DNA of 64,000 nucleotides from Balanoglossus misakiensis. Its lineage: Eukaryota > Animalia > Hemichordata. Below are positions 5,578 through 64,000 of this stretch, one piece after another (the first letter of the stretch is position 1; every line of letters starts with the position of its first letter). Location: NCBI GenBank assembly GCA_040954595.2, contig CM082576.2:19019028-19083027 (forward strand), read 5' to 3'. A program made the translations under genes and the position numbers. A model generated the notes under the pieces. The model was given only the letters and a program-made list of their open reading frames with translations, was not told the origin of the DNA and searched no databases.

Positions 5578-5970
5578 GGGACCTTATGAGATTGGTTGCA
5601 TCTGTATGGATGTATGGGTGTATGTCCGTCCACATCAAAAACTTGAAAACCGCTGCGCGTACAACCTCGATATTTGTTGTGTAGATGCATACCGGGCTGT
5701 AGATGGGAGTTTGTTCAAACAAAGTTGTCATTGCCCAAAATATGTAAATTATCAGGGAAAAACCTAAATTTGGTCAAAACTCAGAAAATCAACAACCACT
5801 GGTCATAATGATTCTGTATGTTTTGAGCTAATACTGTGAATTTTCCATTTTTTATGCATATTTTGTCTTTTTCCACATATTTGGTAATAAAACCTACTTT
5901 CTGGAATTAATCAGCCCAGCGCTTTGAAATTTAGTATGGAGCTTCATATAGGTGATCTGAGATACTAAAG
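5578..5970 (+). mobile_element. Interspersed repeat copy; inverted copy at ~43690-44148
   Basis: tgggaccttat..gattggttgc.tctgtatg..aaaaacttgaaaaccg..gatgggagtttgttcaaac matches the reverse complement of ~43970-44148, and the similarity continues to ~43690. Confidence 0.8.
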
Positions 5971-12153: not shown

Positions 12154-12359
12154 TGTTTTTTTAGTGCTGCTTGTAGGATTGCAGTGACACATAACACTTG
12201 ATTGGGCATAGTGAATTTTTTTATGTTTCCAAAGTATTTGAATATTTTTGCCATATATGCTTGCCAATGTCGCCCGTGATTTTAATTCTGGCGAATACCT
12301 AAAATCTGTGTAATCCCCAAATGGCACAACAGTATCCTATATGCTATGTTTTAAGAAGT

Positions 12360-25830: not shown

Positions 25831-26499
25831 ATATCCTATTGACCGAAATTATTAGTTAGAGTAATATAGACATACAAAACGAGGTGATCGTAATATAAAA
25901 CTTAATAGTCCAATAAATCGGGTTAATAATTGGTAGTGATTACTTGTTTTAAAATTAGGTTAACAGCAATGGCTTTGTGCAGGGTATGATAATAGGTTCT
26001 GAAATGTGTATGGTATAATAACGGTGAACAAATTTGAATTTGGTTTAATAAAAGGGTTAAAAATGTGATGATGGTTTTATGGTAAAATTGGAGTGTACAC
26101 AGGTTATAAAGGGGTAACAGTGGTTGCTTGTATGAAGGTAATGATAATAGGGTAACAAATGTGACTGGTATAAAAAATGTATAATAACGGGTTCATAATA
26201 TGATGATGGCTTGTGTACACAGGTTATAATGGGTATATGAATGAGAAGGGTATAATAATGGTAATAGGGTAACAAATGTGACTGGTATAAAAAGGTATAA
26301 TAACGGGTTCATAATATGATGATGGCTTGTGTACACAGGTTATAATGGGTATATGAATGAGAGGGGTATAATAATGGTAATAACTGTGTCAGGTTTAATA
26401 AGGGTAGCAATTGTGCAAGGGTATAATAACGATTAATAATTGTGGTGATGGCTTATGGTGATATTAAGTATAAAAGGGTGTTTAATATTGATGGTGATG

Positions 26500-26778
26500 A
26501 TAAAGGTATAATGATGATAAATCGTTAAATAAGTGTCCAGGGTCTAATAATCATGTTGGTTCATTCATTGGTTAATGTGAATATTTTATGAATAACATGC
26601 TATTATTTCTCAGATAGATAATACTCGTCAGTATCGTTATTCGGTGGAATTTCTCGCAACGGTACCCGTGATTGTATTCGCGCATCGACACATTGTACGC
26701 GACAGACATGCAGAAAATGTTAGCACAATGTTAGGTTAGCTTAACCTCCCCACCCCATCCAAATTCCAAATTTAGCTT
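26500..26778 (+). repeat. Dispersed direct repeat; partner at ~42835-43163
   Basis: Shared ggttcattcattggttaatgtg, cattgtacgcgacagacatgcagaaaat and aaattccaaatttagctt; upstream GTA-rich sequence is also similar. Confidence 0.85.
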
Positions 26779-32700: not shown

Positions 32701-33925
32701 TTTAATGCATATGCATTGGTATTTAATGTTGACTGTAAATCCCCAGGTTAATACGTGGCCAAAAGCACTGTAATTTGACATTGCTAATGCTACCGTGACA
32801 CTAAATCTGATTCTTTGCATTGGGGTAAATTGTGAAGCAAGCTTGATGATGCATCAGGATAGATGGTGTTTTAAGCCCCTCACATTGACATTGGAATATA
32901 ACGCATATGGGGATTTAAAGTTAATTGTAAATACCCAGGTTAATACATGGCCAAAAGCACTGTAATTTAAAATTGCTAATGCAATGGTGACATTGAATGT
33001 GATTCTTTGCATTAGGGGAACTGGCGTAGCAATCCTAATAGTGCATCAGAGTAGATGGTGATGCAAGCTCTGCACTTTGACATAGGTATTTAATGCATAT
33101 GCATGTGTATTTAATGTTGACTATAAATCCTCAGGTGAATACATGGCCATAAACACTATAATTTGACATGGCTAATGAAATGGTGACACTGAATCTGATT
33201 CTTTGCATCAGGGCATATTGTGAAGCATGCTTGATGATGCATTAGGGTCAATAGTGACGGAAACACTGCACTATGACATGGGTATTTAATGCATACGCAT
33301 TGATATTTACAGTTGACTCTAAATCCCGAGGTTTATACATGGCTAAAAGCGCTGTAATTTAAAATTACTAATGCAAAGGTTACATTGAATATGGGTAAAT
33401 GGTGAAGCAAGCTTGAAGATGCATCAGGGTAGCTGGTGTTTCAAGCCCTTCACATTGACATTGGAATATAATGCATATGGGGATTTAAAGTTGATTGTAA
33501 ATCCCTAGGTTAATACATGGCCAAAAGCAATTTTATTTGACATTGCTAATTGAACGATGACATTGAATCCGATTCTTTGCATCAGGGTAAATGGCGATGC
33601 AAGCTTGATGATGCATCACGGTAGATAGTGATGCAAACACTTTACTTTGACATGGGTATTAAATGCATATGGGGATTTCAAGTTGATTACAAATCCCTGG
33701 GTTAATACGCGTCCAAAAGCACTGTAATTTGACATTGCTAATGCGATGTTGACATTGAATGTAATTCTCCGCATTAGGGCAAATGGCAAAGCAAGCTTAA
33801 TGATGCAATGGAGTAGACCGTGATGCAAGCTATGCATTTTGACATAGGTATTTAATGCATGTGCATGGGTATTAAATGTTGAATGTAAATTCTCAGGTTA
33901 ATACATCTCCAAAAGCACTGTAATT

Positions 33926-36376
33926 GGGGGCACAAGCGCCCTCAGGCGGCTTGTGCCCCCATTGTTATTGTTGGAATTTTTCTTTATTATTAGGGCCCAA
34001 GCGCATACCAGCGCTTGGGCCCTATTGGTTTCGTTGGGGTTTTTCTGTCTTTCCTTCTTTCTTCTTTCTTTCTTTCTTTCTTTATTCTTGTGTCAATTCT
34101 TTGTCGCTCTAGATCTCAGACACCGCTGCAGGTACACTTCTGAAACTTGCTACAGTGGTCAAGGTCAACGAGTAGTCGTGCATTGAACCTGTGAATTTTT
34201 AATTAGTCACGTGACCTGGCGGCCATCTTGGATTTTCTAAAAAAATGCAAATCTCAGATCTCAGAAACTACAAGTCAGATCAACTTCAAATTTGGCATGC
34301 TGGTAGACTACCTCCTGCCCATCATTTTTGTAATTGGAAATTATGCTGACAATGTTGCAGTTTTTTTGCTACAATTTTTTTTCTGAAATCTGGCTTAAAT
34401 TTCAAAAATCTTCTTCTCCAGAACCAGCGATAACCGAGTCACGCCGTTTGGGGTATGTGGTCACCTAACAGATGTCTATCAAGTTTGCGAAGATCATTGT
34501 GATTGGTCGAAGATTATGGCGGCGATATTGGATTTTCGAAAAACCATAGTAAAACTTCAAAAATCTTCTTCTCCAGAACGGGCGATAACCGAGTCACAAG
34601 ATTTGGTGTGTGTGGTCATTAAACAGATGTCTATCAAGTTTGCGAAGGGGAATGTGATTGGTCGAAGATTATGGCGGCCATATTGGATTTTGTGAAAAAC
34701 GATTAAAAAGTAAAAATTCCCTTTCTAGCCTAAAAATTGATAGCACAGAAATTCTTTTTATGGATATGAATCATCATATGCCAAGAATAAGCTATAAATA
34801 TTTTGGTAATTTTGGCAATGACCTTTGACCTACTTTTGACGCATCATTTTTCTGCATATCTAATTCCAGGCTAACCTTTAAGGCTATCATTTTGGTTTTT
34901 GATGTATGTGGATTCGTATGTGATCAAAAAATTTTGCTACTTTTCACGACCCCTTTGACCTCTGCTGACCTCATTAAATATGCACATACCTAATTACAGA
35001 TGAACCAATAGACCTAGAGGTTTTGTTTTTGTTATACATGGACAAGTATGGGGTCAAAATATTTTGCCCAAATGTTGGGTGACCTCGGGTGACCTTTGAC
35101 CTACTTAACACTATATCAGCAACAGATCAGATAATAGAGCTTGGGCCCGGACAATGCTGCTTGCAGCTTTAATTATTATTATTATTATTCTTCTTCTTCT
35201 TCCGAGAAATTCGGCCAGGTAGATCTGGAAAACCGCAGCACCTAGGGGGCTGAAACTTGGTAGGGTGATAGGGGCCAATGAGTAGACGTGCAGTGGCCCG
35301 TGAATATTTAATTAGTCATGTGACCTGGCGGCCATATTGGATTTCCTGAAAACCATTAAATGAGTCCTTCTCAAAAACTACAAGGCCGATCGAGTTCAAA
35401 TTTGGTGTGCAGGTAGCCTACCTTCTGTCCATCATTTTACCCCATTGAAATCATGACGTCACACATAAAGTTTTTTTGCTACAATTGTTTTTCTTAAAAA
35501 ATACTTAAAACTTTAAAAATCTTCTTCTCCAGAACCAGCGGTTACCGATTCTCGGGATTTGGGATATGTGGTCACCTAACCTATGTCTATCAAGTTTGCG
35601 AAGCGCACTGTGATTGGTCGATCATTATGGCGGCCGTGTTGGATTTTCGGAAAACCATTGAAAAATGAAAATTCTGTTTTGTAGCCAAAATGTTGACAGC
35701 ACGGAAATTCTTTTTTGGGATATGAGTCATCATATGACCGGAAGTTGTCACAATTTTTCGTGGCAATTTTCACATGACCTTTGACCCAGTTTTAAAACAA
35801 CTAATTATATATGCATATTCCCCATACCTCCTCTTGTAAAAGCACCACATTCATGAATTTTGTGGACATGGGTACCAATGCTGCCAGGACATGACACAAA
35901 TATTTTGGTAATTTTGGCAATGACCTTTGACCTATTTCTGCATATCTAATTCCATGCTACCCAATAGGGCTAGAGGTCTGGTATTGGTTGGACATGGCCC
36001 AGTCTGGGGTCAAAATTTTATGCCCTAATTTTGGGTGACCTTGGGTGACCTTTGATCTACTTTCCCATATCTCAGCATCCAGAGCAGTTAGAGCCCTGGC
36101 TGTTATGGGTATTGAGCACATAATGGAGTCTTACACAAGACCTCATTAATTATGTGCATACCTAATTGCAGGCGAACCAATAGGGCTAGGGGTCTGGTTT
36201 TTTGTTGGATCTAGACTAGTATGGGGTCCAATTTTTTTGCCCAAATTTGGGGTGACCTCAGGTGACCTTTGACCTACTTTCCCATGTCTCGGTATCCCCA
36301 GCAGATACAGCCGTGGAATTTGCTGGTCACCATGGGAACCGCTTGTGCCCCCCCAACGCTGCTTGCAGCTTTAATT
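33926..36376 (+). mobile_element. HINE-like element (same family as 23499-24771) inserted in the satellite, carrying a nested element
   Basis: Removing it restores the satellite sequence gcactgtaatt|taaaattgct; 5' palindrome gggggcacaagc..gcttgtgccccc; 3' end gcttgtgccc..gctgcttgcagctttaatt. Confidence 0.88.
33990..35174 (+). mobile_element. Second HINE-like subfamily nested in the (ATT)n tract of the outer element
   Basis: 5' palindrome tagggcccaagcgc..gcgcttgggcccta, (CTTT)n tract, 3' end gcttgggccc..gctgcttgcagctttaatt; the outer element resumes at attattatt..cttccgagaaat. Confidence 0.85.
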
Positions 36377-39300
36377 TAAAATTGCTAATGTAAGGGTGAC
36401 ATTGAATCTGATTCTTTGCATTAGGGGAAATGGCGTAGCAAGCCTAATGATCCATCTGAGTAGATGGTGATGCAAGCTAAGCATTTTGACATAGGTACTA
36501 AATGTATATACATGGGTATTTAAAGTTGTCTGTAAATCCCCAGGTTAATACATGGCCATAAGCATTATAATTTGACATTGCTAATGAAATGGTGACACTG
36601 AATCTGATTCTTTGCATCAGGGCATATTGTGAAGCATGCTTGATGATGTATTAGGGTCAATAGTGATGGAAACACTGCACTATGACATGGGTATTTAATG
36701 CATACGCATTGATATTTACAGTTGACTCTAAATCCCGAGGTTAATACATGGCTAAAAGCGCTGTAATTTAAAATTACTAATGCAAAGGTTACATTGAATA
36801 TGGGTAAATGGTGAAGCAAGCTTGAAGATGCATCAGGGTAGCTGGTGTTTCAAGCCCTTCACATTGACATTGGAATATAATGCATATGGGGATTTAAAAT
36901 TGATTGTAAATCCCTAGGTTAATACATGGCCAAAAGCACTGTAATTTAAAATTGCTAGTGCAATGGTGACATTGAATGTGATTCTTTGCATCAGGGCATA
37001 TTGTGAAGCATGCTTGATGATGCATTAGGGTCAATAGTGATGGAAACACTGCACTATGACATGGGTATTTAATGCATACGCATTGATATTTACAGTTGAC
37101 TCTTAATCCCGAGGTTAATACATGGCTAAAAGCACTGTAATTTAAAATTACTAATGCAAAGGTTACATTGAATATGGGTAAATGGTGAAGCAAGCTTGAA
37201 GATGCATCAGGGTAGATGGTGTTTCAAGCCCTTCACATTGACATTGGAATATAATGCATATGGGGATTTAAAATTGATTGTAAATCCCTAGGTTAATACG
37301 TGGCCAAAAGCAATTTTATTTGACATTGCTAATGCAACGATGACATTGAATCCGATTCTTTGTATCAGGGTAAATGGCGATGCAAGCTTGATGATGCATC
37401 ACATAGATAGTGATGCAAACACTTCACTTTGACATGGGCATTAAATGCATATGGGGATTTCAAGTTGATTACAAATCCCTGGGTTAATACGCGTCCAAAA
37501 GCACTGTAATTTGACATTGCTAATGCGATGTTGACATTGAATGTAATTCTCCGCATTAGGGCAAATGGCAAAGCAAGCTTAATGATGCAATGGAGTAGAC
37601 GGTGATGCAAGCTATGCATTTTGACCTAGGTATTTAATGCATGTGCATGGGTATTTAATGTTGAATGTAAATTCCCAGGTTAATACATCTCCAAAAGCAC
37701 TGTAATTTAAAATTGCTAATGTAAGGGTGACATTGAATCTGATTCTTTGCATTATGGGAAATGGCGTAGCAAGCCTAATGATGCATCTGAGTAGATGGTG
37801 ATGCAAGCTAAGCATTTTGATATAGGTACTAAATGTATATACATGGGTATTTAAAGTTGTCTGTAAATCCCCAGGTTAATACTTGGCAAAAAGCAATTTT
37901 ATTTGACATTGCTAATGAAATGGTGACACTGAATCTGATTCTTTGCATCAGGGTAAATGGCGATGCAAGCTTGATGATGCATCCCGGTAGATAGTGATGC
38001 AAACACTTCACTGTGACATGGGTATTAAATGCATATGGGGATTAAAAGTTGACTGAAAATCCCTGGGTTAATACAAGTCCAAAAGCACTGAAATTTGACA
38101 TAGCTAATACAATGGTGACATTGAATGTGATTCTTTGCATTAGGGGAAATGGCGTAGCAAGCCTAATGATGCATCAGTGTAGATGGTGATCCAAGCTATG
38201 CTTTTTGACATAGGTATTTAATGCATGTGCATGGGTATTTAATGTTGACTGTAAATCCCTGGGTTAATACAAATCCAAAAGCACTGTAATTTGACATTGC
38301 TAATACAACGGTGTCATTTAATCTGATTCTTTGCATCAGGGCAAATTGCGAAGCAAGCTTAATGATGCATCGGAGTATATGGTGATGCAAGCTATGCACT
38401 TTGACATACGTATTTAATGCATATGCATTGGTATTTAATGTTGACTGTAAATCCCCAGGTTAATACATGGCCAAAAGCACTGTAATTTGACATTGCTAAT
38501 GCTACCGTGACACTAAATCTGATTCTTTGCATTAGGGTAAATTGTGAAGCAAGCTTGATGATGCATCAGGATAGATGGTGTTTTAAGCCCCTCACATTGA
38601 CATTGGAATATAACGCATATGGGGATTTAAAGTTAATTGTAAATACCCAGGTTAATACATGGCCAAAAGCACTGTAATTTAAAATTGCTAATGCAATGGT
38701 GACATTGAATGTGATTCTTTGCATTAGGGGAACTGGCGTAGCAATGCTAATAGTGCATCAGAGTAGATGGTGATGCAAGCTCTGCACTTTGACATAGGTA
38801 TTTAATGCATATGCATGCGTATTTAATGTTGACTATAAATCCTCAGGTGAATACATGGCCATAAACACTATAATTTGACATTGCTAATGAAATGGTGACA
38901 CTGAATCTGATTCTTTGCATCAGGGCATATTGTGAAGCATGCTTGATGATGCATTAGGGTCAATAGTGATGGAAACACTGCACTATGACATGGGTATTTA
39001 ATGCATACGCATTGATATTTACAGTTGACTCTAAATCCCGAGGTTTATACATGGCTAAAAGCGCTGTAATTTAAAATTACTAATGCAAAGGTTACATTGA
39101 ATATGGGTAAATGGTGAAGCAAGCTTGAAGATGCATCAGGGTAGCTGGTGTTTCAAGCCCTTCACATTGACATTGGAATATAATGCATATGGGGATTTAA
39201 AATTGATTGTAAATCCCTAGGTTAATACATGGCCAAAAGCACTGTAATTTAAAATTGCTATTGCAATGGTGACATTGAATGTGATTCTTTGCATCAGGGC

Positions 39301-41625
39301 ATATTGTGAAGCATGCTTGATGATGCATTAGGGTCAATAGTGATGGAAACACTGCACTATGACATGGGTATTTAATGCATACGCATTGATATTTACAGTT
39401 GACTCTTAATCCCGAGGTTAATACATGGCTAAAAGCACTGTAATTTAAAATTACTAATGCAAAGGTTACATTGAATATGGGTAAATGGTGAAGCAAGCTT
39501 GAAGATGCATCAGGGTAGATGGTGTTTCAAGCCCTTCACATTGACATTGGAATATAATGCATATGGGGATTTAAAATTGATTGTAAATCCCTAGGTTAAT
39601 ACGTGGCCAAAAGCAATTTTATTTGACATTGCTAATGCAACGATGACATTGAATCCGATTCTTTGAATCAGGGTAAATGGCGATGCAAGCTTGATGATGC
39701 ATCACGGTAGATAGTGATGCAAACACTTCACTTTGACATGGGCATTAAATGCATATGGGGATTTCAAGTTGTTTACAAATCCCTGGGTTAATACGCATCC
39801 AAAAGCACTGTAATTTGACATTGCTAATGCGATGTTAACATTGAATGTAATTCTCCGCATTAGGGCAAATGGCAAAGCAAGCTTAATGATTCAATGGAGT
39901 AGACGGTGATGCAAGCTATGCATTTTGACATAGGTATTTAATGCATGTGCATGGGTATTTAATGTTGAATGTAAATTCCCAGGTTAATACATCTCCAAAA
40001 GCACTGTAATTTAAAATTTCTAATGTAAGGGTGACATTGAATCTGATTCTTTGCATTATGGGAAATGGCCTAACAAGCCTAATGATCCATCTGAGTAGAT
40101 GGTGATGCAAGCTAAGCATTTTGACATAGGTACTAAATGTATATACATGGGTATTTAAAGTTGTCTGTAAATCCCCAGGTTAATACATGGCCATAAGCTC
40201 TATAATTTGACATTGCTAATGAAATGGTGACACTGAATCTGATTCTTTGCATCAGGGCATATTGTGAAGCATGCTTGATGATGTATTAGTGTCAACAGTG
40301 ATGGAAACACTGCACTATGACATGGGTATTTAATGCATATGCATTGATATTTACAGTTGACTCTAAATCCCGAGGTTAATACATGGCTAAAAGCGCTGTA
40401 ATTTAAAATTACTAATGCAAAGGTTACATTAAATATGGGTAAATGGTGAAGCAAGCTTGAAGATGCATCAGGGTAGATGGTGTTTCAAGCCCTTCACATT
40501 GACTTGGAATATAATGCATATGGGGATTTAAAATTGATTGTAAATCCCTAGGTTAATACGTGGCCAAAAGCAATTTTATTTGACATTGCTAATGCAACGA
40601 TGACATTGAATCCGATTCTTTGCATCAGGGTAAATGGCGATGCAAGCTTGATGATGCATCATGGTAGATAGTGATGCAAACACTTCACTTTGACATGGGC
40701 ATTAAATGCATATGGGGATTTCAAGTTGATTACAAATCCCTGGATTAATACGCGTCCAAAAGCACTGTAATTTGACATTGCTAATGCGATGTTGACATTG
40801 AATGTAATTCTCCGCATTAGGGCAAATGGCAAAGCAAGCTTAATGATGCAATGGAGTAGACGGTGATGCAAGCTATGCATTTTGACATAGGTATTTAATG
40901 CATGTGCTTGGGTATTTAATGTTGAATGTAAATTCCCAGGTTAATACATCTCCAAAAGCACTGTAATTTAAAATTGCTAATGTAAGGGTGACATTGAATC
41001 TGATTCTTTGCATTATGGGAAATGGCATAGCAAGCCTAATGATCCATCTGAGTAGATGGTGATGCAAGCTAAGCATTTTGATATAGGTACTAAATGTATA
41101 TACATGGGTATTTAAAGTTGTCTGTAAATCCCCAGGTTAATTCTTGGCAAAAAGCAATTTTATTTTACATTGCTAATGAAATGGTGACACTGAATCTGAT
41201 TCTTTGCATCAGGGTAAATGGCGATGCAAGCTTGATGATGCATCCCGGTAGATAGTGATGCAAACACTTCACTTTGACATGGGTATTAAATGCATATGGG
41301 GATTAAAAGTTGACTGAAAATCCCTGGGTTAATACAAGTCCAAAAGCACTGAAATTTGACATAGCTAATACAATGGTGACATTGAATGTGATTCTTTGCA
41401 TTAGGGGAAATGGCGTAGCAAGCCTAATGATGCATCAGTGTAGATGGTGATCCAAGCTCTGCGCTTTGGCATACGTATTTAATGCATGTGCATGGGTATT
41501 TAATGTTGAATGTAAATTCCCAGGTTAATATATGCATGGGTATTTAATGTTGACTGTAAATCCCTAGGTTAATACATGGCCATAAGTACTGTAAGGGGTA
41601 GATGGTGATGCAAGCTCTGCACTTT

Positions 41626-42148
41626 GACATGGGGATTAAATGCATGCTGAGGGGGATTTTAAGTTGTCTGTAAATCCCCAGGTTGATATGTGGCCAAAAG
41701 CACTGTAATTTGACATTGCTAATGATGGTGAGCTGTACTCCCCAGGGAGTTGAATGGAATGTTTAGGTCCAATGACCTAGGTCAAATGACCATGGGACAA
41801 CTTTAAAGCATGTTGAGATTTAATGTGCTACATAAGTTATAAATATTATATTAATATTATTACATAAACAACACTCTTACCTAGCTAAGGAAGTGGTCAG
41901 GTGAAAAATATTTGCAGAGCTGACCAATTATTTAAGGAATATTAAAGTTGGGTAATTTGGACGTATTCATACGGGTGTTGGTCAATGGAAAGTCCTTTGT
42001 TCATTTTCAAAATGGCAACCAAAAATGCGAACAAAACACACTGAATTATGTACGGGATATTGGTGTTGCCTAATTTGCGTGTTTCCACATTTACTTAAAC
42101 TCTCACAGGGAGACAAATGTCACAGCAAACGGAAAAATGACTATGCTA
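41626..42148 (+). repeat. Local duplication (satellite end + SINE tail + unique DNA); copy at ~45724-46252, partial copy at ~45155-45378
   Basis: Shared ctccccagggagttgaatgg..ggaagtggtcaggtgaa..aaactctcacagggagacaaatgtcacagcaaacggaaaaatga. Confidence 0.9.
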
Positions 42149-45378: not shown

Positions 45379-45721
45379 AGGGGCAAAGTCTCTCATCGCT
45401 GCCTTTTTTCAATTAATTATGTATGATACAAGACGCCATTGATGTTATTCTACATGTGGATATATGGTGAATCAACATTCGACCACACACAACTTCCGTC
45501 TCGTTTGTACGATATGAGAGTAAAAACTCGCCCAAAATGAATAAATGGTAAAGAACGATTATTCATTTTGGCGAGTTTTTCACTCTCCTGTCTATAAGAG
45601 GGATGGAAGTTGTGTGTGGTTGAACGTTCATTCGCTATATATCCACATGTAGAATAACAAACGGTGTCTCTTATCAAATATAATATGGGAAAAAGGGCAG
45701 CGAGAGAGAGACTTTGTCCCT
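45379..45721. mobile_element. 343-bp foldback MITE, Kolobok-like (left TTAA, AGGG terminus)
   Basis: TIRs aggggcaaagtctctc..gctgcc / ggcagc..gagagactttgtccct; nearly the whole element is an inverted repeat; TTAA is present only on the left. Confidence 0.75.
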
Positions 45722-46254
45722 CACATGGGGATTAAATGCACATGCGTGTGTATTTAAAGTTAACTGTAAATCCCCAGGTTAATACGTGGCCAAAAGCACT
45801 GTAATTTGGCATTTCTAATGATGGTGAGATGTTGTTTGCTCCCCAGGGAGTTGAATGGAATATTTAGGTCCAACATCCTAGGTCAAATGACCATGGGACA
45901 ACTTAAAGCACGTTGAGATTTAATGTGCTACATAAGTTATAAATATTATAAAAATATTATTACATAAACAACACTCTTCCTTAGCAAAGGAAGTGGTCAG
46001 GTGAAATATATTCGCAGAGCTGACCAATTCTTTAAGGAAAATTAAAGTTGGGTAATTTGGATGTATTCATACGAGTGTTGGTCAATGATAGGAAAGTCCT
46101 TTGTTCATTTTCAAAATGAAAACCAAAAATGCGAACAAAACACACTGAATTACGTATGGGATATTGATGTTGCCTAATTTGTGTGACTCTACATTTACTT
46201 AAACTCTCACAGGGAGACAAATGTCACAGCAAACGGAAAAATGATTATGCTAAG

Positions 46255-47210
46255 CAATACGCCAACCTTTAAAATATTACTTTAGAAAGTTTGTATTCAT
46301 ACTTTCTTCAAGTTGTCATAACGCTACCCCGAAATGTGTTTAAGTATTGCCTTTGTATTAATGGGCTAGATTCATGGCGTTATATGTCATAAATTAAAAA
46401 GCCAACCCTTATTGATTTTGATAATATTTATGTCGGAGAATCCACAATGAAAATTATGTATTTCAATTTCATAACTCAAAATGATTTTCAAATCCATGAC
46501 CTTATTTTCAACTCCAGTGATCGTACATCCTGAACCTTGTGCCAGTAAATGATTGGCCATTACAGGGTTAATGGGCACTCTCCCGTTCTCTTCCTCCGCA
46601 GTTTCATTCATGTTCTTGTTTGACGGAAATGGGTGTGACCAGACGCTTGAATGTTTTCATGTGGGTGTCGTTGTTCATCGGGATCGGTCTCCTGGTGTGT
46701 CTGTACAGGTACGCAAGGAGAAACTGCCCACAAGAAGCTGCGAGTGAAACTATTTAAGGTAGTATGTGCCTCGCGGTCCGAGATTCAGACAAATGATAGT
46801 CCTCAAAACTTTTTCAAGTCTTTGATTTACTAAAGTGTATGGTGAGTCTCTTTGAAAACAACAAAAACATTACTCACCATATTGTTATTTTTTTGAAAGT
46901 TTAAAATGAAGTTGACAATGTACCAAACAGATTCTATTTATTTCTTCATGACCATGTTCACCCCAAGGTCATATGGACCTGCAAGTATATGCCAGAGCCA
47001 GAGTCGACATTACCGAAGCCAGAGTTCAAAGCTTGCAGGTCACCCCTTGCCAGCTCATGTCTAGCTAAACTGCCATGGATGCCAAGAGATATAGGACTAC
47101 AGTAACCTGTAGATGGTTTCAGTATGTTTGAAGAAAGTGGTGGCGCACTTTTGGCTACATTTGAAATGGCTATGGTACCAGTGGTTGAATTTGCAAAGGT
47201 GACCTTTGAC
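46255..47210 (+). repeat. Long direct repeat, copy 1 (copy 2 at 63045-64000, running off the window)
   Basis: Both start caatacgccaacctttaaaatattac and stay highly similar to the end of the window. Confidence 0.95.
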
Positions 47211-49745: not shown

Positions 49746-50027
49746 GTTTTATCGTTTTGTTGTGCATTTGTTTGTATACTATCATAAATTGTTGCCATAT
49801 AGTGGAGACCATGGTTTTGATAGGTAGAGATTCTGCAAATTGTGAAGACGGTGCTGGGTCTGTAGGCTGGTACTGTTACTGTATGTGCGCTTGTGGTTTC
49901 CTGCTATATAATATGGGCCGTGTTGGTTTGCGTCGTGCGTTTGGCTGTGTTGACTTGTGCTGAATGCCCTGTACTGCTAGGGGTTGTCAAACTGGGGGTT
50001 GTAAATCGCGATACAGCAAAGCATATA

Positions 50028-51837
50028 TGCAGAAAGAATATCTAAGATAGGGAGAAAATTTGGGTTGGAAGGGACTGCTTTAAAAGATTATGTTAGAGAG
50101 GAACAAATTAGACAGAGGGATCTTAGGGCTACTGAGAGAGAGGAGCAGAGAGAAGATAATAGGCGGCGCGAGGAACATGAGAGAGAGATACTGAAAATGC
50201 AAATTCACTTACAAGAATTAAAATTGAAAGGGGAAAATACAGAACAGCAGGTTACTGAAAATAATTTGGCCAAAGCGCGTGCTCCGAGACTACAGGGTTT
50301 ACGTGAGGATGTTGATGATATGGATGCGTACCTTCAACGTTTTCAGCGCTACGCCACTGCTCAGAAGTGGGAAAAAGATGACTGGGGGTGAATCTCAGTG
50401 CATATTGTTACAAGGTAAGGATGTATCCACATACAACCAAATGCCTGCAGCGTCTGCAAATAATTATGATGAATTGAAACCAGAGTTATTGAGGGCTTAC
50501 CAGTTAAGTGAGGAGAGTTTTCATGACAAGTTCCGTTCGTGTATGCCACATTATGATGAAAGTGCTCAAAAGTTTATGGACCGTATTGGTGACTATTTGG
50601 GCAGATGGGTAGAACTGGCTGGTACTCCAAAGACGTACAATGGGCTTACAGATCTTTTACTTCGAGAGCAGTTTATTGGAGTATGTTCCAGAGACATGGC
50701 AATGTTCATTAGAGAGCGACGGCCACAGAATGTCCAAGAGATGGTATCTACTGCCTCAAAATACTTAGATGCCCGAGGGTGGTGGAAACTGCCAAGTAAT
50801 GCCAAGAATAATCCAAGGAGCCAGCCGACAGCAAATACCAAGCCTGCTGTATATCCAAATCAAGTAAATAAGTTTAATAACAAAACCAATGGTTCCCATG
50901 TTTTTAAAGGTACGTGCTTCGTATGTGGTAAAGGTGGTCATATGGCCAAAGATTGTAGAAGTAAGCCAAAGATGCATAAGACGGCGGTATTGTTAACTGA
51001 AGAAGATAGAAACTATCCACCTAAACAAGAATGTACACATTGGGGCAACCGTCAACAGCCCAGGGGACTAGACACTGGTTATGCATGTATGGTGGTAGCA
51101 ATGGAAATAGATAAAACAGATGCAACACTGAATAAGGAGTTCGTGTTACCATGTGGTCATAAGCTCCCAGTGATGAGTGCTGCTTGTAGTGCCCATGGAG
51201 TGAAGAAGATGCCGGTAATGAAGGGATTGGTCGATGGTAAGCTGGTTAGCGTTTTGCGTGATAGTGGGTGTAGTAGTGTGGTAGTTCGAAGAAGTCTGGT
51301 GTCAAGTAATCAGCTGACTGGTGAGTACAGGACGTGTGTTCTGATAGATGGGACTATTAGAAGAGTACCTGTAGCCTCTATAAAAGTTGATACCCCTTAC
51401 TTTGTTGGTGATGTTACTGCACTGTGCATGATGAACCCTGTGTATGATTTAATACTGGGCAACATTGATGGTGTATCTGACCCTTCGAATCCTGATACTA
51501 CATGGCAGGAACCATTGCCGACATGTAGACTGTGTACAACTGTTGGACAGGTACCAGGTTTAGCAAATGCTATGGAGACCAGAGCCCAGAAGATAGCCAA
51601 CCAAAAACCAATCAGAGAGCTTAAAGTACCTAAAGCTGTTGGTGAAGTGGTGATGCCAGGGAAGCTTCAACAAGCTCAAGAAGAAGACTCCACTCTTGAC
51701 AAACTACGTGAGAAGGCAATTTTGGGTGACGAGAAAGTGACTAGGAATGGAGGTAGGTTGAAGTTCATCATGAAAGATGGGATCCTGTACAGAGAGTTCA
51801 ATTCGCCAATGGTCCAATTTGGTGAAAAGCTGTTACA
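50028..51837 (+). pseudogene. gag: Gag (coiled coil, SCAN-like capsid, CCHC knuckle) and aspartic protease; frameshifted
   Basis: LGLEGTALKDYVREEQ; DMDAYLQRFQRYA..W; LLLREQFI; CFVCGKGGHMAKDC; LRDSGCS; frameshifts near 50050 and 50390-50405. Confidence 0.9.
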
Positions 51838-51921
51838 CACTGCGGGAAATACTAGAGCTATGTTGGGCAGTATTCCGCGAAGCGCGAGCTCCCATGTTCA
51901 CCATAGCAACGCATTGCCAAG

Positions 51922-52572
51922 ATGGCGGCGCCCGTGTTGATCGATGCCGAGAAAGTTATAAAACGCAAATTGCGAGAGGCAAAATCTGTGCTTAAACGTA
52001 AAAAATGCGTGTCGGACAATCTGTATATACACCCACTCTTTGATGAACTTGAGGATGTGACAACAAGGGCCATATTTCGAAACGACAAGCTGTCAAAGGA
52101 CAAGATTCGTTGGCGTGACGTCGCCGTATTTCCCATGTTTCAGCGTGATATGACCTACTGGCAGAAGACCTTCTACGCTCGGCTGTCAACATCCCCGTCG
52201 TTAAGGTCACCATGGCAAAGCAGCTTTACACAACAAATGCCGAGGGAAGTATTTGATGTTTTTCATCAGTTTGCTACTCGGACCGGTTTTGGTATCGACT
52301 AGAAGACCTCCAGGGCTATCATAACCTTGACCTTCACAAGTTCCTCGAAGCTATTGTATGTGATACGGAAAGGTTATTGCTACGAGGGCGCTATCGGTCA
52401 GCATACAGAGAATATCCTAGAGAAGAAAGTCCGTGGAAAGAGGGTAGCTGTTATATGCACACCTGAGAAGCCCTGTGTTGTGAAATATTTTATCAACAGG
52501 GAGACTGTTGCTGTTAGATTCAGCTTTGGTGCCTGGAACAAACATGGAATTCCATTACATCCAGAGAACTGA
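51922..52572 (+). pseudogene. Transposon partner gene, ~216 codons with a single in-frame TAG (52300-52302); unknown family
   Basis: ORFs 51922 and 52327 share a frame (offset 405); start context caagATGgcg; AATAAA at 52701. Confidence 0.7.
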
Positions 52573-53424
52573 ACCCTATTGATTTTTCACACTGATTCAA
52601 CCCATCTGACGAACATTTTTTTCCTGATCTGTGGCACATGTTGTTCAGTGTAGATGTATCAGTCTGTCAAGACAGTCCTCTCACAATTGACATATATTCA
52701 AATAAAAAAAGGAAAATTAGAAGACTCAAAAATTCATCACTTGTCTTTATTTATCTACATTCAATACAAATGAACAGATAACGTTTACAAAATTTCCTAA
52801 ACTGTAAAATTCTTTTTTTCCATCATTATTGTAACATAGATTTTTCATTAGTTTCAGAAAAAAATGTATGTTACCTACAATCAACATTGATAAGTCAATC
52901 AAAACTGCTCATCTAACAGTTAACCAGGATTTCTGGTCTAAATTTAATTAATATTTACAATTAATTCCATGACAAAATTTATAAATATCAAGAATTTGAT
53001 GAGACTTAATTCTTTATTTTTTCACAAATTCATTAAAATTTCGTGCAGGTGCAGAATAAACAACTCCTCAAGAAAAATGTAAAACTTTTCTATCAAGCTT
53101 ATGTATGTCATACATTTTAATTTTGCAAAGCACTGCAATCACTATACGATTAAGGGTTTATTCACAATACTTAATAGTGGTAAGATAAGTTTCAATTTCC
53201 CTGTCCCCATACATGCACACATATACAAAATCCCATAAGAAACATATCATCTCCAGTTCAAAAAGTGTGAATTCATGTGATTTGTGATCTCCATTTTTAT
53301 TAAATGCAGCTCTCAACTACAGATGAGTCTTTATAATTCTGTAATGTAATTAATACCATAGTTATCCTTTAATTCTAAAGTAGCACACAGTGACACAATC
53401 CACTGTTTCAAATTCAATCATTGT

Positions 53425-55665
53425 TCACAGCATAAGTTTCTTGAGTTTATTTGATATTTTACCAGTGACAGCTGCTTTTTTTATGTCATCCATAATTGGG
53501 TCAACACATATTTCACAGGCAGTCATTGTTTCATTTTTCAAATTGCCACACATACAGTAGCCTGCATTCTCATAATATCGACTGGGAATGTATTTTTCTT
53601 TTTCTTTAAGCTCAAATTGACCTACATTTGCCCTTCTATAGTTGTCAGCTTTTGGACTTTTGTTCCTCAGCCAAAAAAGCATCACATATTCGTGTCGAAA
53701 TATGAGGGCCCACCTATTTTGAGGTGTAGAATTTTCACTGAATTCTAGCAGGCGTAGATGCTTTGCCTCTCTGCCTTCCATTGTGTTTAGGCCTAATCCC
53801 AGACTGAATTGCTTATAGATACTAGTGGTGTGTTTTGGGACTACATAACCAATGTGCCACACAGTATTATTGACATTCAGAAACAGGGAATGTAGATTAA
53901 AGTACCACCGACACTTATGCCTAAGTACAAGCAAATCTCCCTCATTTATGTTGAATCGTGAGAATAACAAAGTGATATCTCTAAGCAAGATACCAGTATA
54001 TGTGTAGAGAGCTAATTGAGCCCGACGCTTTGGACTGTCTGTATCGCTTCTCAATGCTAATACCAATCCCATGAAATGCCAAGCAAGTTTGCGAGACTCC
54101 TCACCAGTGAAGCGATAAACCACATTAATGTTGGCATTTGACTTGACACTATTTTCATTGAAGTATTTTACAATCTTATTATACAACTTTCCAGCTTTTA
54201 CTTGATATTTTAGGGCAGACAGGAATTTGTACAGATATGACTCGTTAGGTAGATTCTCAATTTTAACTCCATTTTCACGACCCTTTTCCGAAGTGTGGGC
54301 AACTGCGTCAATCAGTAATCGTTGGAAGTAGTATTGCCATGCATTGTTCTTTAAATGCAATGGCTCAGCCTTGGCACAATCAATAAATCTACCCAACGGT
54401 GGTACAAATTCCTGTCTTGACCTCAGACTGGCTATAAATTGTGTGATTTTGGGTCGCACTGTTTTGGGCTTTCCAGTTTTAATTTTCTTAGTTGACTTCA
54501 ACTTTTCAACAGCTTCTGCATCTTTAATTCTTTTCTGATATTTCCATTCATCCCACTTCTGACCTGGGCCAATTTCTGCTCCAATACAATCAATATCATT
54601 TTTGGAAACGTTAGCAAATGAGCTGAAATACTTTGCTGCATTGCTTAGTTCTCCAGACACACTGGCCAATCCCTTCTGATCAAAGGGTAAAAGTGACACC
54701 TGAAAAGTTACATCAAGACTGCCAACTTTATATTTACGTTTCTCAATACACTCAAGGTCTTTTGACAATGCAATTGCAAATTCAATCATTATGGGGTCAT
54801 CCTCTTTTATGTTTGCCCCTAATAGGAGAAAATTGTGGTCTGGGCTAGCAACACGGTGGGTCACATTCAAGAAACTAACTAGCCATGCAGTGGCCTGTCC
54901 ATGTTTGCCAAACGGAGCCCCGTCAGCACCTATACTGATTTGAAATGAGCCCTCCTGTTTACCGAACCAGTTAAGAATATCAGGCTGTGTTTCCCCCACA
55001 TTTAAATATAAACTGGCAATCTTAATAAGCAACTCCTCAGGGTTTCTTTTTAAGCCGACTTGTTTGCCTTCAGATGATATAATTGGCTCAAGATTTCCAA
55101 TGTCAAGGTTACTTACATACTGTACAACTTTTGTGTATGGGAGCAGTCTTGGTATTCTACAGCCAGAATGAATTTCTAATGCTTTCCTAGGATGTTTCAA
55201 GTTGGAGAACATCTGAAGTTCACTCTGCCTCAGACAGTTATATTTTCGTTTGGATAGTACTCCGCCCTCATACATAGTTCTGACACTCCTCACCAAATTG
55301 TTCTCACTTTTCTCAAATTTACTGATGTATTTATCAAATACTGATGGCATTACTTTTTTACTGATTTGGGGAGAGGTTCTGAAGTATGTTTTCATTTGGT
55401 CAGGAGTGGCAGAATTAACAAGAGTATACCACAAACCATCAAGTGCTGCTTTTGGTGGATGTAGTACATTCGGTTTATTTATACCTTTGGCTGGGCTTAC
55501 ATCTGTAGTTGCTACATGAATATTTATGGCTGCTGATAAGGTTTCACACCTACGTTCATACTGTTGACGTCGCGACAGCTTCAAAGATTCACTATTATCT
55601 GCACATACTTCAGTATTCTTGTGGACCCATTTAGAGCGTTTCACATTAACATCATCAACAGGAAT
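53425..55665 (-). CDS. Main exon (746 codons) of the DDE transposase, RAG1-core-like
   Basis: Acceptor tttcag|ATT, phase 0. Motifs GADGAP (D241), FDQK (D322), EPLH, RFTGEESRKL, MEGREAKH (E626), numbered on the 739-aa ORF, parallel RAG1 CDG, YDEK, DALH, RMNGNFARKL, SEGNESGN; C-terminal CxC..CxxC. Confidence 0.85.
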   Translation of the reverse strand: MPVDDVNVKRSKWVHKNTEVCADNSESLKLSRRQQYERRCETLSAAINIHVATTDVSPAKGINKPNVLHPPKAALDGLWYTLVNSATPDQMKTYFRTSPQISKKVMPSVFDKYISKFEKSENNLVRSVRTMYEGGVLSKRKYNCLRQSELQMFSNLKHPRKALEIHSGCRIPRLLPYTKVVQYVSNLDIGNLEPIISSEGKQVGLKRNPEELLIKIASLYLNVGETQPDILNWFGKQEGSFQISIGADGAPFGKHGQATAWLVSFLNVTHRVASPDHNFLLLGANIKEDDPIMIEFAIALSKDLECIEKRKYKVGSLDVTFQVSLLPFDQKGLASVSGELSNAAKYFSSFANVSKNDIDCIGAEIGPGQKWDEWKYQKRIKDAEAVEKLKSTKKIKTGKPKTVRPKITQFIASLRSRQEFVPPLGRFIDCAKAEPLHLKNNAWQYYFQRLLIDAVAHTSEKGRENGVKIENLPNESYLYKFLSALKYQVKAGKLYNKIVKYFNENSVKSNANINVVYRFTGEESRKLAWHFMGLVLALRSDTDSPKRRAQLALYTYTGILLRDITLLFSRFNINEGDLLVLRHKCRWYFNLHSLFLNVNNTVWHIGYVVPKHTTSIYKQFSLGLGLNTMEGREAKHLRLLEFSENSTPQNRWALIFRHEYVMLFWLRNKSPKADNYRRANVGQFELKEKEKYIPSRYYENAGYCMCGNLKNETMTACEICVDPIMDDIKKAAVTGKISNKLKKLML

Positions 55666-56018
55666 CTGAAAGATTAAGTGTGTGATAAATATATACTAAT
55701 TAGAATATAATCATTATATATAAAATAAAATCTTCTTACAAGTTAATCATTAATTTAAATGTCCTTGATAAGAAATACACACGTGTAGCCTGTATTTTTC
55801 TGACAACTTCTGCAATAAAAATCCTAAAAAATATATATAGTTTGTTGGAAAACCTAGATGTTTTGCATCAAAGCTGAACCCATTTTGTTATCATTGTTTA
55901 CACAGGATCATGTGACATGAAGTTCAAAAAGCGAATTTGGGCTAAAATTTGAAGAGGATTTATACAAATCTGAGATTTTTAAAATTATGACTAAGTCTAT
56001 TTATCTGATCTAGCTTAC

Positions 56019-56462
56019 CTTTCTCTTATTATTCTTTGTAGCTAAGATCTCACAAATCTTACTGTTCTTCTTCTCTAGTCTAGCTAGCTGGGTTGAGGAT
56101 CTTTTTACTAGTCTCCTAGCTGCACTCAACTTATTCAACTTATCCTGAATTATGCTTTCTTCCTCATCTCTCTTTCTCTTTCTCTGTCTACACCACTCTC
56201 CTAAGTTAAACCTGTGTTTAGTCTGTCCTCTCTTTGTTCTAACTACCAATAGGTTGTTGGCCACGCTCCCAGACAAAGATCTAGTCTTCAATTTCTCCTG
56301 ATATAGTTGTTGCAAACACTTCTCTTCAGCTACCTGTCTCGCTATCTTTTGGTCCTTTGCCCACTGGCCTATGTTGAAGTAACTTTTCCCTTTTCTATTC
56401 GGCATAACAATAGACAAACTTTTAAGAAGTGCGCTACTCCTGTTGAATAGTTTGCCCCACAT
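56019..56462 (-). CDS. Upstream coding exon of the transposase (basic, helical N-terminus); start ATG at 56462 or 56405
   Basis: Acceptor ccttttcag| at 56479/56478; donor AAG|gtaagc at 56019/56018 is phase 0 and joins 55665 in frame; a likely further 5' exon ends at 56615 (|gtaagg). Confidence 0.75.
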
Positions 56463-57313
56463 GGCTCTAAATCTATACCTGAAAAGGGTGAACAAGAGAA
56501 ATATCTTTACAATAATTATCTATCCGAGGGAAGCAAAAACAAAACACCTGCTCATTATACTTCCTCCAGAAATTGAGGTCAAAGGTGACATAGAAAGAAT
56601 GTGGGTAACCTTACCATAACAATCTCGCCCGTTCATTTTTTTCTTATTTCGTTTTCACCCTCGAATTTCCAGCGAATTATATCAAGAATATATTTTAGCA
56701 CAAACTATTGGTTTCTGATTTTTCAGTTACGGTCTTATTTTCTGTCAATTCTATGAACAATATCACCATGTCGCTGAAAATTCGAAGCGCCGCCATTACA
56801 ATCAATGTAACCCGTGCTGCTGCCAAGGAACACACAGGGTCGTATATTTTCGCTTGGTATGATTTCGTCATATTGCTTGTAGCAGCATTTTAAACATGGA
56901 ATCCTATGTTTACGTATAAAAGACTAAATTCGTATGGTTTTCAAATTGAAAAAAAAACAATTCTGTGAAGCTGAATCGTTGTAATTTTTAGTGTTTGTTT
57001 ATGGTTGCTTAGGACGGCTTCTGCTATAGCAACGGCCAGGGACTGTCAGCGGGTGATCAAAATGTTCAAGTTATTTGGCTGATACACATAAATAACACAG
57101 CAGAATCGCAACTTTATTTCATATTGTCTCTGACATCTTGCTAATTTTACTAAACAAAACTTGGAATAAAGCAATATTACTCACCGAATTATGCTGTGCA
57201 TCGACAGCTGTGTTCGATCGCGAACGCCATTACTGTGTCTAATTAAATATTCATGAGCTTCATAGGCTGCCACGGAAATACTGCCCATAGGTGGCGTCGT
57301 TCAAGCTGTAGTG

Positions 57314-59325
57314 ACAGGTGGTGGTTCCCAGAGTGTATCGTAACCAGGTGATGAGACTAGCCCATGAATCAGTGCTGGGTGGTCACCACGGAACTCACAA
57401 GACCACAGACAAGATCCTCAGCAACTTCGTTTGGCCTGGGCTAACATCAGATGTTTCCCGTTACTGTCAGTCCTGTGATTCATGTCAACGGACACAACCA
57501 AAGGGACGGGTGACCAAGGTACCACTTGGAAGTATGCCACTAATAGATATCCCTTTCCTACGTATTGCAGTAGACCTGGTTGGCCCTATTCATCCATGCA
57601 CTGAACGCAAGAATAGGTACATACTTACTGTTGTTGATTATGCAACACGCTATCCGGAGGCTGTTGCATTGACTAACATTGATACCAAGACTGTTGCAGA
57701 GGCGCTCCTGGACATCTACTCAAGAGTGGGGTGTCCACGTGAAATTCTGACAGATCAAGGAACTCAATTTACATCAGATGTGATGCGTGAGGTCAGCCGG
57801 CTTTTGTCTATAAAGCAGAAGACTACCACCCCATACCACCCAGCATTCAATGGTCTAGTGGAACGGTTCAATGGTACATTGAAACTCATGCTCAGGAAGA
57901 TGTGTGAGGAACGTCCAACATATTGGGATCGTTATCTGAATGCTTTACTATTTGCCTACAGAGAAACGCCTCAATCGAGCACAGGATTCTCTCCGTTTGA
58001 GTTACTTTATGGGAGGAGTGTGCGTGGTCCAATGGCTATCTTGAAAGAACTATGGACTGGAGAGATCAGTGAACCAGAAACCAAAACGACTTATCAATAC
58101 ATCCTTGATCTTCAAAAGAAATTAAAGAAGGCATGCGATTTAGCAAGACAAGAACTGAAGATATCACAAGGCAAATACAAGTCCTACTACAATAGAAAGG
58201 CCAAATGGAGGAAGTACAACAAAGGTGACGAGGTGTTATTGCTACTACCTACTGACCATAATAAACTACTTATGCACTGGAAGGGTCCTTTTCCAGTGGT
58301 GGAGAAAGCGAGCAATATGGATTACAAGATTGACTTTGGTCATAGGGTGAAAACATTCCATGCCAACCTGTTGAAGAGGTACTATCGAAGAACTGATCAG
58401 CTAGATGAAGTATCAGCTGGACTTCTTGAGATTGTGTGTGTATCTGTGATAGATGAGCAGAGTTATGAATCTTCAGAAGTACAAGAGAACACAGGGGTTA
58501 AAGTAAACGATGACTTACTGCGGGTTCCTGCATTCAAGCAGAAAGAATTTGCTGCAGATGTGAATGTATGTGACAACTTGTCAGACATACAGGAGCAAGT
58601 GGTGAGGAGGTTGCTGATCAATTACAAAGATATGTTAACTGATATTCGTGGTAACACCAACCTGGGTTTCCATGACATCAAGTTGATGGATCCAACACCA
58701 GTATGCAGTAGGCCATACCCCATCCCTCATGCACTCCGTGAAGCAGTGAAAGATGAAGTCAAAACGATGATTAAGATGGGAGTAGCTGAACCTTCAGAGA
58801 GTCCATATGCTGTTCCACTGGTAATGGTGAAGAAATCTGATGGGTCCAATCGTTGTTGTGTTGACATGAGAAAGCTCAATCGCATAACAGTGTTTGATGC
58901 AGAGCCTACACCAGACCTGAGTGAGCTTTTTGCTTTTTGCTAAGTTATCCAAGGATCACTATTTCACTAAAGTAGATCTCAGCAAAGAATATTGGCAAGT
59001 CCCGTTGACTGATAATTCTAAACAATTGACGGCATTTATCACGCATGATGGGCTATACCAATTTATCAAAATGCCTTTCGGACTTGTAAATAGTGCTGCG
59101 ACTTTTAGCAGAATTATGAGAAGATTGTTAAGAGATATGAAGAACGTAGACAACTATATCGATCACATACTGATCCACACTGCATCATGGGAAGAACATA
59201 TCAAGACAATTACAGATTTGATGAGCAGACTACGAAAGGCAAAGTTAACAGCGAGACCAACTAAGTGTTATGTGGGTTATGAGCAGATCGATTTCCTGGG
59301 TCATGTGGTTGGTCATGGTGAACTA
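57314..59325 (+). pseudogene. pol: Pol: integrase followed by reverse transcriptase (frameshifted, truncated)
   Basis: HHCC zinc finger (LAHE..GHHG..CDSC), VDLVGP, TDQGTQF, LVERFN, WKGPF; RT motifs VDMRKLN, VDLSKEYWQV, MPFGL, YIDH (mutated YIDD), FLGH; frameshift near 58930. Confidence 0.93.
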
Positions 59326-59690
59326 GTCCTGTTTCAAAATGACCTACATTACAGGTCCTATGCACACGTATTACATGTTCTGATTGGTTTATCCACTTCT
59401 CTAAGGTCCACTTGCGGCTCGCTGATTGGAGGGACCTTATGTGTTAGGTCTTATTACTATGTATTATTCACCAGACCTTGTAGGTTAGGTCTTATTACAA
59501 TGCATTATTCACTTTACAGCTCCCTGATTGGTTAATGTGTAGGTCTGGTCCTCCAGTGTTCACTGCCTCATTATGCAGGACCTTGTAGGTTAGGTCTTAT
59601 TAATATGTATTTATTCACCATACAGCTCCCTGATTGGTTAACGTGTCAGTCTGGTCCCCCCCAGTGTTCACTGCCTCATTGTGAAATGTC
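59324..59690 (+). repeat. Unrelated sequence with ~105-bp tandem repeats that truncates RT
   Basis: gaccttgtaggttaggtcttatta..acagctccctgattggttaa..ccagtgttcactgcctcatt occurs twice, with partial copies upstream. Confidence 0.7.
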
Positions 59691-62930: not shown

Positions 62931-63044
62931 AGCGTTAACATAACTTTATCAGAATAAGTTAACGCCATAACTTTGACAGAATAAGAGTTGCCTCAAACGG
63001 CTCTAACCGAATTTCCATTAATAGCAGAACAAACAAGCTGTAAT

Positions 63045-64000
63045 CAATACGCCAACCTTTAAAATATTACTTTAGAAAGTTTGTATTCATACTTTCTTCA
63101 AGTTGTCATAACGCTAACCCGAAATGTGTTTTAGTATTGCCTTTGTATTAATGGGCTAGATTCATGGCGTTATATGTCATAAATTAAAAAGACAACCCTT
63201 ATTGTTTTTGATAATATTTATGTCGGAGAATCCACAATGAAAAATATGTATTTTCAATTTCATAACTCAAAATAATTTCCAAATCCATGACCTTATTTTC
63301 AACTCCAGTGATCGTACATCCTGAACCTTGTTCCAGTAAATGATTGGTCATTACAGGGTTAATGGGCACTCTCCCGTTCTCTTCCTCCGCAGTTTCATTC
63401 ATGTTCTTGTTTGACGGAAATGGGTGTGACCAGACGATTGAATGTTTTCATGTGGGTTGAGTTGTTCATCGGGAACGGCCTCCTGGTGTGTCTGTACAGG
63501 TACGCAAGGAGAAACTGCCCACAAGAAGCTGCGAGTGAAACTATTTAAGGTAGTATGTGCCTCGCGGTCCGAGATTCAGACAAATGATAGTCCTCAAAAC
63601 TTTTTCAAGTAATTGATTTACTAAAGTGTGTGGTGAGTCTCTTTGAAAACAACAACAATATTACTCATCATATTGTAATTTTTTGAAACTATAAAATGAA
63701 GTTGACAATGCACCAAACAGATTCTATTTATTTCTTCATGACCATGTTCACCCCAAGGTCATATGGACCTGCAAGTATATGCCAGAGCCAGAGACGACAT
63801 TACCGAAGCCAGAGTTTAAAGCTTACAGGTCACCCCTTGCCAGCTCATGACTAACTAAACTGCCATGGATGCCAAGAGATATATGACTACGGTAACCTGT
63901 AGATGGTTTCAGTATGTTTGAAGAAAGTGGTGGCGCACTTTTGGCTACATTTGAAATGGCTATGGTACCAGTGGTTGAATTTGCAAAGGTGACCTTTGAC
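63045..64000 (+). repeat. Long direct repeat, copy 2 of 46255-47210+
   Basis: Paralogous ORFs 46387/63199; colinear to the window end. Confidence 0.95.

Follow-up and report, generated by a model that had tools for sequence, protein, structure and literature searches.

Two-gene plans are already known among DDE transposons, and the pairing described here is a variant of them. As far as the accessible parts of the reports extend, precedents for a required second protein are RAG2L (PMC7481187) and TnpA together with TnpD (PMC1636069). According to the part of a preprint available to us, TnpA consists of tandem helix-turn-helix (HTH) motifs, arose from a transposase and appears to be limited to flowering plants (bioRxiv 10.64898/2026.08.24.746577). 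The TR5 element of ProtoRAG, GCCATCTTG, binds YY1 in the lancelet and aids recombination, as given in the accessible part of that report (PMC7481187). One question in the origin of adaptive immunity is why a Transib-like transposase, at first a single protein, acquired RAG2.

We analysed a 64,000-nucleotide stretch of contig CM082576.2 of the acorn worm Balanoglossus misakiensis (hereafter the window), in which a DNA transposon carries a second gene, the partner, facing a transposase (Table 1). The partner is a real, conserved and transposon-specific gene that is dead in the window copy; it occupies the place of RAG2 but is not kin to RAG2. The elements have CAC...GTG termini. Both ends of the window element share CACT and the 11-mer; coral-type elements have CACG termini with a perfect repeat of 11-12 bp. 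A 3-bp target duplication was found in the window and at L018, L081 and L083, the last of which also shows the empty site in intact satellite units. Among the nine metagenome loci with both ends, two (L018 and L081) have the 3-bp duplication, L013 and L082 have only a 2-bp match, five have none, and a 4- or 5-bp duplication occurs in none of the nine. At L016/L018 and L012/L013 one flank is common and the other is not, which points to chimeric assembly; L082, whose contig measures 1.85 Mb, departs from the 3-bp pattern without explanation. No Rfam match was found in 51700-57450.

Table 1. Coordinates of the two-gene element and associated features in the window.
Feature	Position	Strand	Basis
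Whole two-gene DNA transposon, 5476 bp, CACTG...TAGTG	51838..57313	.	Sequence; same layout in related loci
Left 3-bp target duplication, ACA	51835..51837	+	Sequence
Right 3-bp target duplication, ACA	57314..57316	+	Sequence
Subterminal 11-mer TGGGCAGTATT, 26 bp inside left end	51864..51874	+	Sequence
The same 11-mer, inverted, 26 bp inside right end	57277..57287	-	Sequence
YY1-type motif CAAGATGGCGGC, spanning the partner start codon	51918..51929	+	Sequence
Partner gene, one exon of 216 codons, DUF8238-type family, defective in this copy	51922..52572	+	Frame, family profile
Premature TAG, codon 127; G at 52300 (Glu) in majority contigs	52300..52302	+	Contigs, two runs, one sample
Main transposase exon, 756-aa open frame, acceptor before 55665, C-terminal CxC...CxxC	53425..55695	-	Sequence, predicted RAG1/Transib fold
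Probable upstream transposase exon, 169-aa frame	56010..56519	-	Frame; splicing inferred
Decayed host retrotransposon of Ty3/Gypsy type (SCAN, CCHC, protease, integrase, RT-like frame), split by the element	50005..59535	+	Pfam/frames

The surroundings of the element are rich in repeats. The host retrotransposon has SCAN in gag and an integrase ahead of the RT-like frame, a domain order that we take to be that of Gmr1-type elements. It is enclosed, together with the element, by a direct repeat of 96% identity (46251-47210 and 63041-64000, 16.8 kb apart), the second copy of which runs off the end of the window. Tandem repeats of about 192-196 bp with a strong G skew occupy 40000-41800, skew plateaus at about 26000-42000 suggest further satellite blocks, and an imperfect palindrome of 343 bp at 45379-45721 is perhaps a small non-autonomous element. 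At 51836, one contig of run X2 joins the left end to a different flank and so records a second insertion site; the depths (6701 for the contig with the window flank vs 135 for the other), which we do not equate with copy number, hint that the window insertion lies in an amplified segment. The same sample holds a second related family with the end CACTACGGGCC..., which agrees to ~80% with the window at the two extremities of the partner gene (51863-51976 and 52523-52570) and whose middle is colinear with the window gene (549 vs 546 bases).

The transposase is probably encoded in two exons, a donor at 56018 being in phase with the acceptor of the main exon. The upstream frame gave a weak match to the Pfam family HA below the cut-off (E 4e-4), and the transposase itself matched neither a Pfam family nor a PDB sequence. 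A model based on 107 sequences (pLDDT 90) retrieved RAG1 (E 2e-12, 10-13% identity), HzTransib (1e-7) and BbRAGL (5e-6) in Foldseek, and its structural alignment with RAG1 covers 620-740 columns. Residues D258, D339 and E643 are invariant in 107/107 transposases and are presumably catalytic. Where the C(2)C pair is expected, as judged from the spacing after the second Asp, the transposases carry Y-F-S-[SP]-F. The second His of H(3-4)H is present in 104 of the 107 and the first in 52, with Tyr in the window transposase, and the C-terminal CxC...CxxC is kept. The closest match to the transposase is from Ptychodera flava (74% identity), and many cnidarian proteins come next (34-45%); the annotation of the P. 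flava locus, taken alone, places no gene at the position of the partner. Searching by the transposase retrieved no viral contig and one prokaryote-labelled contig, L083 (Anaerolineae MAG label), with a complete element carrying both genes at 4325-12850 within a 294/134-bp satellite array. This contig is likely animal DNA in the bin, as its flanks are satellite arrays without long frames. The L081 transposase is recorded on 296 contigs.

The first-pass annotation had described the partner as an intronless frame with one TAG that starts 84 bp inside the left end, and each of these points was borne out: the single internal stop is codon 127 of 216, and the ATG lies 84 bp inward from the element end. 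At this base composition, one given frame of 216 codons has a chance of 4e-5 of containing at most one stop. Position 52300 is G, giving GAG (Glu), in deep majority contigs of the same element from two public runs of one sample. In total, the window copy differs from these contigs at four sites of the partner gene, and 4/4 change the protein (Q104, stop 127, S142 and C179 in the window vs R, E, L and F). R104 and F179 of the contigs are the commonest residues across the partner family, and therefore the decay of the window copy exceeds the one substitution to which its inactivation had been ascribed. The four differences fit what is expected of a decaying partner copy; as such contigs drop rare variants, copy-specific mutation, allele and assembly error are indistinguishable at these sites. 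As a separate observation, the majority contigs of runs X1 and X2 lack one base and have one extra base within homopolymer stretches of the transposase exon (54606 and 53533). In the most frequent version of the element, the transposase may thus be broken and the partner open, opposite to the window copy, or this may be an assembly effect.

A basic, NLS-like N-terminus had also been noted for the window protein. The cluster is present (KRKLREAKSVLKRKK, residues 14-28) but is not a trait of the family: the first 35 residues contain 10 K/R, whereas aligned relatives of at least 190 aa most often have 4 and never more than 9. Neither the window protein nor its halves matched any Pfam family at E up to 1-10, in line with the earlier statement that no motif is recognisable. 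The Pfam set used apparently lacks the model of PF26709, as it gave no such match even for the labelled L081 protein. A single-sequence search with the read-through window protein returned 78 candidates, none of them significant.

Relatives were found through the transposase. We collected 82 loci by that gene, many of them copies of one family, and then searched them for partner homologs. A convergent homolog lies downstream of the transposase at 37 of the 82; the proportion is 24/25 for loci with at least 2 kb of downstream sequence, 34/36 at 1.5 kb and 37/45 at 1 kb. The L083 element also bears one, while L070 and L029 (4.6 and 1.8 kb downstream, respectively) have none, L070 diverging from its relatives right after the transposase. 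Across the family the partner sits ~75-130 bp inside one element end, tail-to-tail with the transposase. Against the family profile A3, which was built without the window, the window protein scored 138.6 bits (E 1e-44, residues 11-213), and hhalign gave a probability of 99.8. The window protein thus does have relatives, matched over its full length. A profile of 20 partners retrieved 124 proteins, and PF26709 (DUF8238) is the label of 116 of the 120 listed; the same precomputed label stands on the convergent gene at L081/L082. The window protein can thus be assigned, by way of profile A3 and its labelled relatives, to a DUF8238-type family. This family comprises 751 clusters at 50% identity; those of its members that bear a species name are from Acropora muricata and Pocillopora damicornis.

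Some loci deserve separate mention. Partner fragments that run in the opposite orientation, close to the end on the side of the transposase (L012:1403, L016:1165-1263, L018:801-899 and L083:4973-5197), suggest a past inverted duplication of the partner end. Adjoining the partner end of L075, frames at 7530-9835 look Harbinger-like by eye, with a Myb/SANT-like frame facing a split transposase. The 558-aa member P0582, a candidate fusion, was rejected because it appeared, by eye, to be a read-through from an inserted endonuclease frame.

The fold was modelled on an intact coral relative (L075; 150 sequences), and the window protein was placed on it by alignment. The model (208 aa, pLDDT 93, pTM 0.82) has six helices and seven strands, in the order of two long helices, two more, and then beta-alpha-beta-beta-alpha-beta-beta-beta-beta. 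The partner is thus predicted to consist of a helical hairpin and an alpha/beta domain, and the beta-rich C-terminus proposed for it is recovered in this relative, with all seven strands from residue 96 on. At 208 aa the modelled protein is too short, and also too helical, to be a six-bladed Kelch propeller. Foldseek found no match to the model at E 0.001 in PDB and BFVD; a wide VIA search returned nothing beyond generic helical hairpins (best Z 7.0, residues 1-57), and the ESM Atlas gave no usable match for two relatives. The alpha/beta part reached Z 4.7-5.0 to AcrID1, SIFV ORF14, AFV1 ORF99 and RnlA, values in the range of common arrangements. Family members showed no consistent match among PDB sequences, PHROGs or Pfam. 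The modelled fold lends no pointer to the function of the partner. Among 122 members the median pI is 9.4 and the median net charge +10. Conservation is strongest for R, P, W, F, Y, G, N and H, in the stretches W-x-K-x-I-x-R-R...P-W, P-x-E-x-F, K-P-F...Y and Y-G-x-W-N-x-x-G-x-P-Q-H; the family has no conserved Cys column.

The start of the partner gene carries a further conserved feature, the YY1-type motif of Table 1, whose reverse complement contains the TR5 element. Of the 20 loci tested, 19 have the form AANATGGC[GC] in frame where the partner begins, the miss having 66 nt upstream, and the start at L083 is one base off. It recurs 46-69 nt inside the other end in 5/9 coral groups (0.02 expected per 200 nt), opening frames of only 14-42 codons in the four loci translated. 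At the partner start the motif could simply reflect a strong start context followed by Ala. Its counterpart at the other end may survive from a duplication of partner ends, because some families have pieces of the partner upstream of the transposase.

Selection and co-descent were analysed in the window and in 25 of the 37 loci with a partner, with near-identical duplicates and one fragment omitted; L043 was removed for its short transposase frame, which resulted in 19 groups. The dN/dS of the partner was 0.33 for L002-L003 (Fisher p 4e-4), 0.34 for L002-L022 (1e-8) and 0.30 for L003-L022 (6e-10), at dS 0.19-0.73 and in pairs that overlap in sequences. Over L002-L003 and the comparisons of L001, L002 and L003 with L022, it ranged from 0.30 to 0.37, and that of the transposase from 0.18 to 0.25. 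The values were 0.51 for L001-L003 (p 0.03) and 1.0 for the near-identical pair L039-L073; in deeper pairs synonymous sites are saturated and the partner frames are still open. A comparison of copies, which the first-pass annotation had proposed, thus indicates purifying selection (dN/dS about 0.3) between moderately diverged families. Together with the homologs at the same site of related elements, this selection rules out a host-gene fragment captured once.

Partner and transposase distances are correlated over the 19 groups (rho 0.61, p 0.0002). Their maximum-likelihood trees have 9/16 splits in common, including 9/9 of the transposase splits with support of at least 98, whereas 10000 shuffles gave at most four common splits and none reached nine. 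Seven splits are discordant, two of these partner splits having support of 91-93. As read from these trees and distances, the two genes show a long joint inheritance. Linkage alone yields such inheritance, so it is no proof of binding. The homologs, their fixed place, the selection and the co-descent nonetheless support what had been proposed at the outset, namely a transposon-specific factor inactivated in this copy.

As to its role, we see about an even chance that the partner is a family-specific, basic and probably non-catalytic transposition cofactor beside the predicted RAG1-fold transposase. Both genes would be transcribed inward from the element ends, the partner from a transcript with a very short leader and a start codon overlapping the YY1-type site. 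The cofactor would bind its cognate transposase, the end DNA or both, and would join the transposase at the end or target DNA. Its basic stretch W-x-K-x-I-x-R-R...R-x-P-W may contact DNA, and its aromatic tail Y-G-x-W-N-x-x-G-x-P-Q-H may pack or dock on the transposase. More speculatively, the partner might brace the region of the transposase that appears to lack the C(2)C zinc pair known from RAG1 and Transib. The window copy would yield at most a 126-aa fragment, and the partner protein would have to be supplied by another copy.

A possible but rather doubtful rival is a regulator like TnpA or VANC, acting outside the cutting complex by binding ends or chromatin and either activating transcription or lifting silencing. 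A basic protein with a conserved basic helix would suit such a role. So would its divergence, which is faster than that of the transposase (mean identity 24% vs 42%, dN/dS about 0.3 vs about 0.2) and also fits a role in host conflict. CAC ends and 3-bp duplications are likewise found in En/Spm, whose TnpA reactivates a methylated promoter according to the accessible part of the report (PMC1636069). The L075 model nevertheless lacks the tandem HTH that the accessible part of the preprint describes for TnpA (bioRxiv 10.64898/2026.08.24.746577). The subterminal repeats of the window form no arrays, being one common 11-mer and one 9-mer present once per end, and no chromatin-reader or enzyme family was matched consistently among 150 members (best 3/150). 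Linkage, together with any advantage that the element gains, is enough to produce both the tree congruence and the selection, and these therefore do not separate cofactor from regulator. The transposon-specific part of the original label is upheld, and the trees and the selection fit either of its two roles, accessory or regulatory.

We regard it as unlikely that the partner is a brake that represses the transposase or steers target choice and so spares the host. RAG2 has a transposition-inhibitory loop (PMC10629977, in its accessible part), convergent transcription permits mutual control, and young multi-copy families (clusters of 100-300 members) retain the partner. Cheating copies, however, should often lose a pure repressor, yet the gene is kept in 24/25 loci and across saturated synonymous distance.

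Still less probable is a small enzyme, such as a nuclease, or a domain split off from a larger ancestral transposase. N200 (98%), R83 (87%) and H207 (81%; L075 numbering) are near-invariant, and there is a weak likeness in shape to the N-terminal region of RnlA (Z 4.8, rmsd 3.9, 70 aligned). The partners nevertheless have no invariant acidic residue (no D or E is conserved above 68%), and the transposase already aligns to RAG1 across its 620-740 columns. No single protein of the 643 fetched matches the profiles of partner and transposase alike, and among the 751 library matches the best 150 are at most 296 aa long. That the partner is a passenger, either a host fragment or a chance frame without function, is hardly credible: the window copy is broken and a single-sequence search found no relatives, but the family, the fixed position, the congruent trees and a dN/dS well below 1 between families all speak against it.

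Beyond the cofactor reading, we tentatively consider, as a possible but less than probable reading, that one lineage of RAG1-fold transposons, which has no name and ranges from corals to acorn worms, turned into a two-subunit recombinase independently. A protein of undescribed fold would stand in RAG2's stead, the zinc site of the RAG1 core would have been lost, and the facing-gene layout and YY1-type end promoters would have converged on those of ProtoRAG. If true, the lineage would be a natural parallel experiment on why RAG1 needed a partner. That question becomes testable with intact natural pairs (e.g., L081), since an unrelated second partner has been kept next to a RAG1-fold enzyme with the genes laid out alike. 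Even if the partner is merely a regulator, it represents a new class of transposon-encoded regulator in animals. The large DUF PF26709 gains a biological context through the transposon link newly drawn here, and a partner without a clear structural match is a target for structure determination. Our literature search retrieved no description of the transposase-partner pair and no paper naming DUF8238; the lists of TransibL and RAG1L in PMC9435367, data files of PMC12730594, a preprint (962 Spm-encoded structures) and Repbase could hold such elements.

Among known families, PF26709/DUF8238, the label of the partner relatives, is entered in Pfam as a domain of unknown function. The following comparisons rest on the accessible parts of the respective sources. 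PIF/Harbinger elements likewise have two genes, a 3-bp duplication and a small second protein (PMC12730594); that protein is Myb/SANT, whereas the partner has no Myb/SANT match and the transposase here has a predicted RAG1-like fold. The CMCT clade shares CA..TG ends, a 2-5 bp duplication and a DDE core with the RAG1/Transib fold, but its C(2)C motif appears to be replaced here by S-[SP]-F, and the available description mentions no DUF8238-type partner; for H(3-4)H the picture is mixed, with the first His present in 52/107 and the second in 104/107. En/Spm (CACTA) elements resemble ours in their CAC(T) ends, 3-bp duplication and second, non-transposase product. Unlike TnpA, however, the partner is a separate, convergent gene with an alpha/beta domain, and the transposase has no Transposase_21 match. 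The tandem tri-helical HTH of TnpA is absent from the L075 model, and no TnpA Pfam family occurred among the 25 listed of the 47 weak matches.

The closest comparison is with RAG2 and the RAG2L of ProtoRAG and RAGL (PMC10629977, PMC9435367 and PMC7481187, each in its accessible part). The homology to RAG2 was rejected, as RAG2 and RAG2L have a six-bladed Kelch propeller followed by an acidic hinge and a PHD, whereas the partner (~210 aa) combines a helical hairpin with an alpha/beta domain, is basic and has no PHD match. The position of RAG2 is kept but the fold is not Kelch, and the partner is therefore not RAG2; the designation "RAG2-equivalent" holds for place and orientation and fails for fold. 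RAGL and Transib produce 5-bp target duplications, in contrast to the 3 bp seen here, and our transposase differs from RAG1 in its low identity and apparently in having no C(2)C zinc pair. What the two systems have in common is a second gene within CAC-ended inverted repeats, facing a RAG1-fold transposase, and a YY1-type motif near the end.
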